Shown: one piece after another, positions 14,427 through 17,868 of the stretch
Layout of the letters: every line of letters begins with the position of its first letter
How positions within the stretch are numbered: the first letter of the stretch is position 1
Virus record (IMG/VR): IMGVR_UViG_2698536484_000013
Location: 1-17,868 of that record
From: a virus
Lineage: Duplodnaviria > Heunggongvirae > Uroviricota > Caudoviricetes
Reading direction: 5' to 3' (one strand)
DNA: 17,868 bases
Made by a program: the position numbers and the translations under genes
The notes under the pieces: generated by a model
The model's input: only the letters and a program-made list of their open reading frames with translations
What the model was told of the DNA's origin: nothing
Databases searched by the model: none

Positions 14427-14442
14427 TTGCTCTAATAAATCT
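14426..14442 (+). promoter_or_regulatory. C1-operator-like 17-mer ATTGCTCTAATAAATCT (16/17 to recalled P1 consensus)
   Basis: Begins on the last base of the HAD gene stop codon; best of the four matches. Confidence 0.55.
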
Positions 14443-14524
14443 TGATTTTTAAAACAGAGAAAGTGAAAATAAAAACATGCCGCAAGGCGCGGCATGTATC
14501 CAATCAATCACAGGAGCTGAAAAT

Positions 14525-16367: not shown

Positions 16368-16538
16368 GTGGCATGTATCGGTTTGTTACCGTACCCGACT
16401 CGTTTTTGGGCTTCTGCGCTAATTGCAAAGCCACATGTCCTGATGGCTGACAACATCATCCCGGCACCAAAGCGCCGCCATACCGGTATTGCAGCGGCAC
16501 GACGAGCAGCAAAGAGACGCAGGAGAGCAAAGCGATGA
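16368..16538 (+). CDS. Possible small protein with Arg/Lys-rich C-terminus (56 aa)
   Basis: GTG 16368 with GAGGGTGAG upstream; ends ...AAARRAAKRRRRAKR; stop overlaps the ATG of the next ORF (ATGA). Below the ORF-track size cut-off. Confidence 0.3.
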   Translation: MACIGLLPYPTRFWASALIAKPHVLMADNIIPAPKRRHTGIAAARRAAKRRRRAKR

Positions 16539-16711
16539 AAAACCGTAAGGCAAAACGACTTTTTTTACAGCGACCTGTGCGTGTGGTGGAGCTGGTTATT
16601 AGCAACCATAAGATAGCGGTACTCCATCCATTTGGTCAGGTGGCTTTTGCCGCAAAGCGTAAGCCTACTGCGTCACAGAACAGGCGGAAGAAAGGGTACG
16701 CAGTAAGATGA
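16535..16711 (+). CDS. Small basic protein, paralogue 1 (58 aa, MKNRKAKRL...)
   Basis: Begins with the same first 7 codons as the next ORF (ATGAAAAACCGTAAGGCAAA vs ATGAAAAACCGTAAAGCAAA) and shares KP(T/S)A(S/A)QNR near the C-terminus; stop overlaps the next start (ATGA). Confidence 0.5.
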   Translation: MKNRKAKRLFLQRPVRVVELVISNHKIAVLHPFGQVAFAAKRKPTASQNRRKKGYAVR

Positions 16712-16896
16712 AAAACCGTAAAGCAAAGATTCTGTTAGTTCGTAGAAACGCTCCTGGCGTCTGGCAGTGGGTGAGACTCAGCAACCGACGGATGGGGTTG
16801 ATGAAATATTACGGGGTGATGGATTGTGGTTTTTGCAAAAAGCCCAGCGCGGCGCAAAACCGCTGGAAAAACCACTTGCGCACTAAAGGAGAGTGA
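16708..16896 (+). CDS. Small basic protein, paralogue 2 (62 aa, MKNRKAKIL...)
   Basis: ORF in the track; tandem duplicate of the preceding small ORF; contains CGFC. Confidence 0.6.
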   Translation: MKNRKAKILLVRRNAPGVWQWVRLSNRRMGLMKYYGVMDCGFCKKPSAAQNRWKNHLRTKGE

Positions 16897-16897
16897 T

Positions 16898-17107
16898 ATG
16901 GCTATCGCTGCAAGTTACACCATGCATCTCTATTGTGATTGCCTCCAATGTACAGATGGCAAATATAAGTCGCCAGACTTCGGTGAGTATATAGGTACGT
17001 CATGGGCTGGCTGTGCAAAAGAGGCGCGCAAGGATGGCTGGCGAATAAGCAAAGACAAAACGCGTGCTTTTGCGCCCGGGCATAAAGTTTTGAGGATTAA
17101 CAAATGA
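16898..17107 (+). CDS. Small cysteine-rich protein (69 aa), probable metal-binding
   Basis: ATG 16898 with AAAGGAGAG SD 5 nt upstream; HLYCDCLQC...GC cluster. The track ORF start at 16826 lies inside the upstream gene. Confidence 0.6.
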   Translation: MAIAASYTMHLYCDCLQCTDGKYKSPDFGEYIGTSWAGCAKEARKDGWRISKDKTRAFAPGHKVLRINK

Positions 17108-17868
17108 CCACTATAACCAAAGATCGACTACTGACAATCAAGCAGTGGCGCGAAACATACGGACCGGGTAGCAACGTTGTACTGCCAGCAGAAGAAGCGG
17201 AAGAACTGGCACGGATTGCTCTGGCATCGCTGGAAGCAAAACCAATAGGTGCATTCCACATTGCAGAACAGCAAGTTGACGGCACAAGTGACTACCTCAA
17301 GGATGGAGAATGGCCTATTGATAATGGAATTATTGAGGTCTACGCCGCTCCCCCCGTTCCAGTAGTACCGGAAGAAAAACCAATGCCTAATCCTCTTAGC
17401 ATGTACGCGGTTGATGCTGTTGCCGCTATTGCAGAGGTGAGAGGCTGGAACGCCTGCCGTGCCGCTATGCTTCAGTCCGGAAACTTTCGGGAAAACAAGA
17501 ATTCGTCAACCAATAATTTTCGGGAAATCGCGGAAACGTCAACCAACTATCCGGTAATTCCTAGTGAGGTGTTGTCCGCAATCCAGAAGGTTGTCAAGAT
17601 TCGTGTCGATTTCGATGATTTTGACGGTGACAGGCGAGGTATCGGTGATTGTCTGGATGAGGCTGAGCAAGAGCTTATCGTTACCATTAACAAATATGCC
17701 AGTCAGTTGGCAGCAGAACCTATAGCGCCTAATGACGTTCGAGAGCAGACAGCCATTCCGCAAGTTCCGGTAACTCCGGATGGTTGGATAAGCTGTAGTG
17801 AGCGAATGCCGAATACCAAAACAGCCGTTCTTGTTGCCGTGGAGTTTGACAGGAAAGGTGACTGGCGA
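17104..17868 (+). CDS. Eaa-like protein with DUF551-type C-terminal region (3' end truncated by the window)
   Basis: Open frame from ATG 17104 (overlaps the upstream stop, ATGA) to the window end, checked codon by codon; PDGWISCSERMPNTKTAVLVAVEFDRKGDW matches the DUF551 pattern of lambdoid Eaa proteins; contains an in-frame 33-nt imperfect tandem duplication. Confidence 0.75.
   Translation, partial: MTTITKDRLLTIKQWRETYGPGSNVVLPAEEAEELARIALASLEAKPIGAFHIAEQQVDGTSDYLKDGEWPIDNGIIEVYAAPPVPVVPEEKPMPNPLSMYAVDAVAAIAEVRGWNACRAAMLQSGNFRENKNSSTNNFREIAETSTNYPVIPSEVLSAIQKVVKIRVDFDDFDGDRRGIGDCLDEAEQELIVTINKYASQLAAEPIAPNDVREQTAIPQVPVTPDGWISCSERMPNTKTAVLVAVEFDRKGDWR
17485..17550 (+). repeat. Imperfect in-frame tandem duplication, 2 x 33 nt
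   Basis: tttcgggaaaacaagaattcgtcaaccaataat / tttcgggaaatcgcggaaacgtcaaccaactat (25/33 identical), encoding FRENKNSSTNN / FREIAETSTNY inside the Eaa-like ORF. Confidence 0.7.

Follow-up and report, generated by a model that had tools for sequence, protein, structure and literature searches.

An in-frame, apparently old 33-nucleotide tandem duplication in the inter-module spacer of an Eaa-like, DUF551-containing gene of a P1-like phage-plasmid

Introduction

Two similar stretches of sequence placed head-to-tail inside a gene raise several questions: whether the resemblance is genuine, when the second copy arose, whether the number of copies still changes, and whether the copies do more than fill a gap between two parts of a protein. 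Such a pair is located near the right end of the window, i.e. the whole stretch of DNA that was analysed here, which comprises 17,868 nucleotides of the tailed phage record IMGVR_UViG_2698536484_000013 of IMG/VR. A preliminary description of this DNA attributed the pair to slippage or duplication in a linker that precedes a DUF551 domain, and suggested that copy number may vary between related phages. The repeat is examined below together with the gene that carries it, its homologues in other phages and prophages, and the explanations that could account for it.

Genomic setting

The window is a segment of a Punavirus (P1-like) phage-plasmid and is 98-99% identical to P1-type phages over about 90% of its length. 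Besides a putative serine-protease gene (Table 1), it contains a tRNA-Met gene, ban/dnaB and dbn, the tail and baseplate genes 5, 6, 24, 7, 25 and 26, and further pmgL-S, pphA and pap, after which comes a string of small accessory genes on the same strand. The string is headed by a site resembling an operator of the P1 C1 repressor. In the phage P7 record, the equivalent site is annotated as Op(hea), bound by the phage repressor C1. By analogy with this annotation, and from the position of the operator-like site after pap, the repeat-bearing gene is probably part of an accessory operon that is repressed by C1. In the sister plasmid described below (locus L001), an Ead/Ea22-like gene is situated three to four genes upstream.

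Table 1. Positions of the repeat and of other features in the window
Feature	Position	Strand	Remarks
Putative serine-protease gene	211-1038		Annotation of the window
P1 C1-repressor operator-like site, ATTGCTCTAATAAATCT	14427-14443	+	Right after pap, heading the accessory string
Mosaic Eaa-like / DUF551 gene	17104-17868	+	First 255 codons; open from the ATG at 17104 to the window end
Conserved junction motif, RGWNACRAAMLQSGN	17440-17484	+	aa 113-127; bounds the shared linker island on the left
Repeat unit 1, TTTCGGGAAAACAAGAATTCGTCAACCAATAAT	17485-17517	+	33 nt, encodes FRENKNSSTNN, aa 128-138
Repeat unit 2, TTTCGGGAAATCGCGGAAACGTCAACCAACTAT	17518-17550	+	33 nt, encodes FREIAETSTNY, aa 139-149
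Identity block A, TTTCGGGAAA	17485-17494 (unit 1); partner 17518-17527 (unit 2)	+	Unit positions 1-10
Identity block B, CGTCAACCAA	17504-17513 (unit 1); partner 17537-17546 (unit 2)	+	Unit positions 20-29
Conserved middle module, PVIPSEVLSAIQKVVKIR...NKYASQL	17551-17721	+	aa 150-206; without a Pfam family
Start of the DUF551 domain	17782-17868	+	aa 227-255; Pfam PF04448 match at aa 227-254

The repeat pair

The two units follow each other without a gap and are identical at 25 of 33 nucleotides (75.8%). Most of this identity is held in two 10-nt blocks, A and B, and most of the eight mismatches fall in the central part of the unit. The open reading frame (ORF) starts at the ATG at 17104, which puts 17485 at the first position of a codon and both units in frame. 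The pair is the sole adjacent pair in the 17.9-kb window that has a period of 21-60 and an identity of at least 75%. A comparable pair with a period of 33 was obtained in none of 200 dinucleotide-preserving shuffles of the sequence, and one with any period of 21-60 in 7 of 200; the binomial expectation for a period of 33 is about 3e-5 per window. A separate repeat finder scored the pair as 32 nt with 78% identity and a spacing of 33. Tandem Repeats Finder (TRF), applied to the whole window with a minimum score of 30, reported four arrays but not the pair at 17485-17550, since a mere two copies with 76% identity score under its threshold. The pair is thereby confirmed as a genuine in-frame tandem duplication, at the position, unit length and identity that the preliminary description had given for it.

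The gene and its modular architecture

The gene continues beyond the window. Its full-length copy is a 296-residue ORF found at positions 4001-4891 of locus L001 in the P1-like plasmid NZ_CP075059.1, which is 99.5% identical. The PGAP annotation of this sister plasmid breaks the intact 296-residue ORF into fragments. Protein P0001 is 100% identical across the part covered by the window and, like other full-length homologues, carries the DUF551 domain (PF04448). The match of PF04448 to the window protein scores 32.8 bits compared to a cutoff of 22, and its restriction to profile positions 1-27 of 68 is due solely to the end of the window. Close homologues are named 'Eaa protein' by several sources. 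The earlier naming of the gene as Eaa-like and DUF551-containing thus holds.

DUF551 was the sole match in a Pfam scan at E <= 1, in which Ead_Ea22 (PF13935 / IPR025153) did not match. The scan of NCBIfam and the search of PDB sequences with the window protein gave no match either. Membership of the Ead/Ea22 family is consequently ruled out by profile, as Pfam assigns only DUF551 and NCBIfam nothing. PHROGs returned unknown-function families only, of which PHROG 14306 covers residues 94-227. Literature searches on DUF551 and on 'Eaa protein' found no functional study of the window protein or of the repeat.

The architecture of the family emerges from a comparison of 150 of the 50%-identity representatives together with more than 200 loci in phages. 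The relatives possess varied N-terminal modules that end in the sequence ...(G)WNACRAAMLQ(S/A)GN and are succeeded by a variable linker. The linker in turn leads either to a module without a Pfam family (PVIPxEVLSAIxKVAxIR...) or to DUF551 at once (PVTPDGWISC...). The search of the representatives returned 551 proteins, many of which align from query position 40-45 onward only. The middle module is common to hundreds of mosaic relatives with differing linkers. Since this modular build is seen across representatives and loci, the repeat is placed in an inter-module spacer. In the window gene, it is bounded by the conserved ...GWNACRAAMLQSGN junction upstream and by the Pfam-less module of about 57 residues (PVIPSEVLSAI...) downstream.

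The linker position assigned to the repeat earlier is therefore correct insofar as the repeat is in a spacer between modules, but the spacer does not directly precede DUF551. The domain begins 77 residues past the repeat, and the middle module and a second spacer intervene. The repeat adjoins DUF551 in some relatives only, where the sequence reads STNYPVTPDGW.

The 22 residues of the repeat include five Asn, three Ser, three Thr and three Glu. In the AlphaFold2 model, the pLDDT is about 30-33 over residues 121-150, the lowest in the model, whereas the module that follows reaches about 55. The model is poor as a whole, with a mean pLDDT of 41, and it draws a helix over residues 138-148, inside the repeat; it is thus of too low quality to demonstrate disorder or to warrant fold searches. 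The peptide may be no more than a flexible spacer.

Prevalence and age of the two-unit state

Two units are present in 119 of the 120 closest protein clusters. The two-unit peptide pattern is found in 79 of the 80 best IMG/VR loci, and the exception (L022) has two units as well, with an in-frame stop codon in unit 2. The fetched loci contain 161 two-unit arrays, with many different sequences upstream of them and, downstream, modules of at least two kinds (PVIPSEVL... or the PVTPDGW of DUF551). The two-unit cassette was found in 139 phage records, including those of Stx phages, P7 and Salmonella phage SEN22, and the sequence identical to that of the window is carried by thousands of E. coli prophages and by phage P7. 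Two units are also kept in the homologues from Salmonella and Symbiopectobacterium prophages.

Within a haplotype, units 1 and 2 are 8-12 nt apart, whereas like units of different haplotypes are separated by only about 2-3 nt. As a unit resembles the corresponding unit of other sequences more than the one next to it, and as both units are present in Salmonella and Symbiopectobacterium, the duplication predates the spread of the cassette. These comparisons of sequences show an old duplication and a two-unit state that is close to fixation. The attribution of the pair to slippage or duplication was consequently right with respect to a tandem duplication, but a recent slippage product does not agree with the near-uniform presence of two units in the clusters and with the greater similarity of units across sequences than between neighbours.

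Variants in unit number

The number of units does differ among related phages, as was suggested earlier: comparison of homologues yielded relatives with 0, 1, 2 and 3 units. Change in copy number is rare. A number other than two was found in 1 of the 120 clusters, and the 5,426 complete E. coli genomes include about 17 with a single unit and one with three.

One-unit alleles are of two kinds. The first is exemplified by locus L085 (protein P0088), taken from a short-read Logan assembly, which has 97.9% identity to the window gene and a deletion of exactly 33 nt. Its junction is inside CGTCAACCAA, and its single hybrid unit reads FRENKNSSTNY. The same hybrid unit is present in four of the 50%-identity representatives (P0143-P0146), which have differing N-terminal modules; a search of IMG/VR for the hybrid one-unit junction did not find it. 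If the hybrid form were the ancestor, it would have to be, with respect to the eight differences between the units, a clean single-breakpoint chimera, which applies to 9 of 256 possible patterns by our count. This, together with the near-identical background of L085, favours loss of a unit from the two-unit state.

In the second kind, only unit 2 is present and the sequence reads GN-FREI(A/S)ETSTN (protein P0158 is an example). This is the form present in about 17 of the 5,426 complete E. coli genomes. Six IMG/VR contigs were matched by its junction pattern, and in the tally of arrays two of the six proved to be single-unit. In the lambdoid phage mEp460_4F5, which carries a unit-2-only allele, the unit adjoins DUF551. 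Block A is the likely crossover site of these alleles. Many other relatives are devoid of any unit and have the sequence GNSPVIP at the same spot.

The three-unit allele was found in an isolate-derived IMG/VR viral contig (L086), in a metagenome contig (L087) and in the complete genome NZ_CM129862.1 of E. coli SW070917, where it matches with 100% identity; O157-type genomes hold the matching two-unit allele. The order of the units is unit 1, a hybrid composed of the body of unit 2 and the tail of unit 1, and unit 2. In sequence, the hybrid middle unit corresponds to the reciprocal product expected of an unequal exchange in block B. The gene that carries this allele is disrupted by a TAG codon and a 1-nt deletion, so that the expansion observed is one in a broken gene. 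When proteins were searched with a three-unit construct as query, only 57 short candidates came up, and an intact protein with three units was not among them.

When artificial one- and three-unit constructs were compared with complete E. coli genomes, the best 40 matches contained two-unit loci only. The ranking of such searches is unable to separate the variants, and the genome counts given above were obtained with real variant alleles as queries. A scan of GTDB species representatives with the cassette protein returned one short contig of a Segatella copri MAG, which matched the first 30 query residues and is uninformative on copy number. The sole match in IMG/VR for three copies of TTTCGGGAA at 33-nt spacing (L003) is an unrelated non-coding array of five 33-bp repeats, which is not homologous to the repeat described here.

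The spacer as a mosaic junction

The conserved junction motif in front of unit 1 is preceded, in different relatives, by at least 6-10 sequences that are unrelated to each other. Of 202 related loci, 140 become homologous to the window at 17440-17459, and in 61 the homology stops at 17560-17569. This clustering of breakpoints is partly due to ascertainment, as possession of the cassette was the ground on which the loci had been chosen. The motif and the two units constitute an island of about 125 nt of DNA that is common to genes otherwise different from each other. With N- and C-terminal modules swapped on either side of it, the island represents an intragenic mosaic junction, and it may promote the exchange of modules. 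Other types of linker present at the same position are internally repetitive too, such as NAESRCT...IAESRCS and GNSPAQ...PAQ...GNSPVIP.

Origin and possible function of the repeat

It is quite probable that the pair represents an old in-frame duplication of 11 codons in a polar spacer between two modules of a mosaic accessory protein. The 11-codon unit would have been doubled in frame anciently, within a spacer rich in Asn, Ser, Thr and Glu and probably unstructured. The middles of the two units would then have diverged, while the blocks TTTCGGGAAA and CGTCAACCAA stayed identical. These blocks may allow occasional slipped-strand mispairing or unequal recombination, by which exactly one 33-nt unit is lost or gained; the positions of the variant junctions are consistent with slippage or unequal crossover as the mechanism. 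The spacer and the preceding GWNACRAAMLQ motif would provide the shared homology at which modules are exchanged.

That the similarity of the units is fortuitous, a matter of chance or low complexity with the variants being assembly artefacts, is hardly credible. TRF makes no call at this place, the segment is A-rich and encodes an N/S/T-rich peptide, and the one-unit L085 comes from a short-read assembly, but the shuffles at period 33 argue against chance, and the variant junctions are exactly as predicted from recombination between the units. Furthermore, the three-unit allele was recovered from a complete genome, an isolate-derived contig and a metagenome contig, the single-unit allele occurs in a sequenced phage and in about 17 complete genomes, and an assembler would hardly collapse units of only 76% identity. 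Somewhat more can be said for the view that the repeated peptide (F-R-E ... S-T-N) has a function, for instance as a short linear motif that is recognized by a partner from the host or the phage, and that selection maintains its two copies. FRE and STN are held in both units in the homologues from E. coli, Salmonella and Symbiopectobacterium, with variable residues between them, and the two-unit state is nearly fixed; the peptide could on these grounds be more than a passive spacer. In addition, when the window is compared with the Symbiopectobacterium homologue (L212), each of the nine nucleotide differences within the units alters the amino acid, and these differences are clustered in the middle and the tail of the unit. 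Many relatives with the same flanking modules, however, have no unit, one unit or quite different linkers, and the motif must therefore be dispensable for the family. Neither a family nor a structure nor any literature found assigns a role to the motif, and its conservation among E. coli phages is no greater than that of the adjacent module. Such a function is on balance unlikely.

A signal at the level of DNA within the coding sequence is the more elaborate possibility. The direct repeats are 33 bp apart, or about three helical turns, and could be recognized by a protein or serve in recombination. The repeated peptide would then be a by-product, and TTTCGGGAA and CGTCAACCAA would drive the swapping of modules among P1-like, lambdoid and P22-like phages. 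It speaks for such a signal that TTTCGGGAA and (T/A)CGTCAACCAA are invariant in both units, synonymous sites included, in Symbiopectobacterium and Salmonella, while the flanking codons change synonymously. Between the window and L212, none of the 17 unit codons that specify the same amino acid is changed synonymously, compared to five of seven flanking codons; the contrast has a hypergeometric p of about 5e-4, by our own calculation, made post hoc on a single comparison that a recombination patch could explain. This result counts against the plain spacer model, which does not predict it. TTTCGGGAA occurs at only two places in the window compared to 0.2 expected (two matches were reached in 6 of 200 shuffles), and the mosaic breakpoints cluster at the cassette edges. 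On the other hand, the diversity at third codon positions in 40 E. coli-phage haplotypes is the same in the units (0.024) as in the downstream module (0.023). There is no stable mRNA structure (z = +1.2), and Rfam finds nothing at the repeat, its scan yielding a tRNA only. The lone promoter-like match that overlaps the repeat is weak (9/12, on the minus strand), and neither the promoter scan nor the terminator scan gave more matches than expected from the shuffles. The existence of one-unit and zero-unit alleles also argues against a DNA signal, and we consider it very improbable.

Two other classes of element were considered and rejected. Iteron or operator repeats do not agree with a repeat that is in frame inside an intact ORF, nor with the occurrence of TTTCGGGAA in the window without a third copy. 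The variable and template repeats (VR/TR) of a diversity-generating retroelement do not agree with adjacent units of 33 nt, and at three of the eight mismatched positions unit 1 does not have an adenine; no reverse transcriptase is listed where the homologous region is annotated in P1-type phages.

Relationship to known systems

The closest known system is Upf89.5 of phage P7 (AAQ07565.1, AF503408), a product of the hea operon. Its gene occupies the same position as the window gene, downstream of pap and Op(hea). Upf89.5 likewise has the N-terminal start, the GWNACRAAMLQSGN junction and the middle module of the window protein, and the units FRENKNSSTNN and FREIAETSTNY, located at residues 126-147, are identical in the two. 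It differs in its length of 432 residues, in having other C-terminal modules in place of DUF551 and in an N-terminal module that is partly distinct. It is annotated as 'unknown protein function'.

The EaA/Eaa proteins of P22-like and lambdoid phages (Shigella phage Ss-VASD, Salmonella phage SEN22 and homologues in Stx phages) resemble the window protein in their C-terminal DUF551 and mosaic build. They are encoded among the early accessory ('ea') genes, and many of them contain the same two-unit cassette. Unlike the window protein, they are built from other sets of modules, and the cassette often adjoins DUF551 (STNYPVTPDGW) without the module of about 57 residues. The sources searched contained no demonstrated function for these proteins. 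Ea22 of lambda and of Stx phages (IPR025153, Ead_Ea22) is, like the window protein, an early accessory protein of temperate coliphages assembled from portable domains. DUF551 has been described as a portable C-terminal domain of unknown function that is present in the Ea22 V2 of Stx phages and likewise in YfdS of prophage CPS-53 (PMC10834534). The window protein differs from Ea22 in having no Ead_Ea22 match, and the pro-lysogenic role of Ea22 is not transferable to it.

With respect to the repeat itself, the pair shares with VNTR or minisatellite repeats in linkers the head-to-tail arrangement, a unit length that is a multiple of three, the location between domains, the gain and loss of whole units and the presence of junctions in shared blocks. 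The copies are adjacent and not due to chance, and their number varies, although rarely, among relatives. In contrast to VNTR loci, the window has two diverged copies (76% identity) in a nearly fixed number, its polymorphism is far lower, and the pair remains under the TRF score and thus escapes detection by that program. The feature is an ordinary in-frame linker duplication of low polymorphism, a known kind of thing. Literature searches found no paper that describes the repeat at 17485-17550.

Implications

The repeat matters little in itself, being a small old duplication in the spacer of an uncharacterised accessory protein. A DNA-level signal, if it were true, would explain why the blocks are without synonymous change even in a Symbiopectobacterium prophage. 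The alleles with one, two and three units and their reciprocal hybrid junctions constitute a clean natural example of units being lost and gained through exchange between 10-nt blocks. Moreover, the cassette marks a mosaic junction, which makes it a convenient landmark for delimiting the modules of the badly annotated Eaa/DUF551 genes.

Alleles and annotation of the repeat-bearing gene

The only three-unit allele found occurs in an IMG/VR sequence (L086), a metagenomic sequence (L087) and a complete E. coli genome (NZ_CM129862.1). In the gene that hosts it, CAG has changed to TAG shortly upstream of the linker (AAML*) and unit 1 has lost 1 nt; as a result, the DUF551 part is read as a 127-aa ORF from an alternative upstream ATG. 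The gene may be either a pseudogene or a re-started gene.

In the 99.5% identical plasmid NZ_CP075059.1, the equivalent frame is open throughout. RefSeq/PGAP splits this 296-aa ORF into two 'incomplete' pseudogene fragments and a 62-aa DUF551 CDS; the split is apparently an artefact of annotation that stems from the gene's mosaic structure.

Coordinates of the alleles and neighboring features
Feature	Sequence	Position	Remark
Three-unit allele	L086	5828-6372	
Three-unit allele	L087	420-660	
Three-unit allele	NZ_CM129862.1	3149707-3149877	
296-aa ORF	L001 (locus of NZ_CP075059.1)	4001-4891	equivalent to window 17104 onward
First small ORF	window	16535-16711	58 aa
Second small ORF	window	16708-16896	62 aa
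C1 operator-like site, ATTGCTCTAATAAATCT	window	14427-14443	directly after pap
tRNA-Met (anticodon CAT)	window	1066-1141	ARAGORN and Rfam agree

Repeats in the linker and elsewhere

When the two-unit Symbiopectobacterium homolog (L212, 3001-3390) is compared with window 17461-17553, the repeat blocks prove nucleotide-identical, with all synonymous sites included, and each difference within the units is an amino-acid change; the eight flanking codons (AAMLQSGN) contain five synonymous differences. The identity of the blocks could reflect either a recombination patch or constraint at the nucleotide level. Four protein representatives (P0182, P0184, P0193 and P0195) have different linker types at the same junction that are likewise internally repetitive, examples being AENAESRCTIQTAPxLDSLPKxAESRCSNSPVIP and GNSPAQSGFRPAQNCIPPAQCGNSPVIP. 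Across the family, this spacer seems to have acquired small duplications repeatedly.

Five 33-bp tandem units (GTTTCGGGAAACGGGTAGAAAAGGCAATGGTAG), apparently non-coding, are present at 3348-3490 of a 99.9-kb sequence (L003, IMGVR_UViG_2675903675_000001). This array is unrelated to the window repeat, TTTCGGGAAAC being the only sequence common to both, and may be an iteron-like array belonging to a different large phage or plasmid. In a Segatella copri MAG, a 3.3-kb contig (L004, JAJXBQ010000292.1) encodes at 624-713 a segment with 97% identity to residues 96-125 of the enterobacterial phage protein; its presence in a Bacteroidota MAG is probably due to mis-binning or contamination.

Neighboring features of the window

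The two consecutive small ORFs both open with ATGAAAAACCGTAA(G/A)GCAAA (MKNRKAK), and their terminal motifs, K(R/K)KP(T/S)A(S/A)QNR, are alike, but their overall identity is only about 56%. They may stem from an ancient tandem duplication affecting a gene for a small basic protein. The second is annotated in L001 as a hypothetical protein; the first has no annotation there. The tRNA-Met is placed as in P1-type phages, between a putative serine-protease gene (211-1038) and ban.

A single base separates the operator-like site from Op(hea), annotated in P7 as a C1 operator. The match suggests that the whole string of accessory genes, up to the end of the window, would be C1-repressed.
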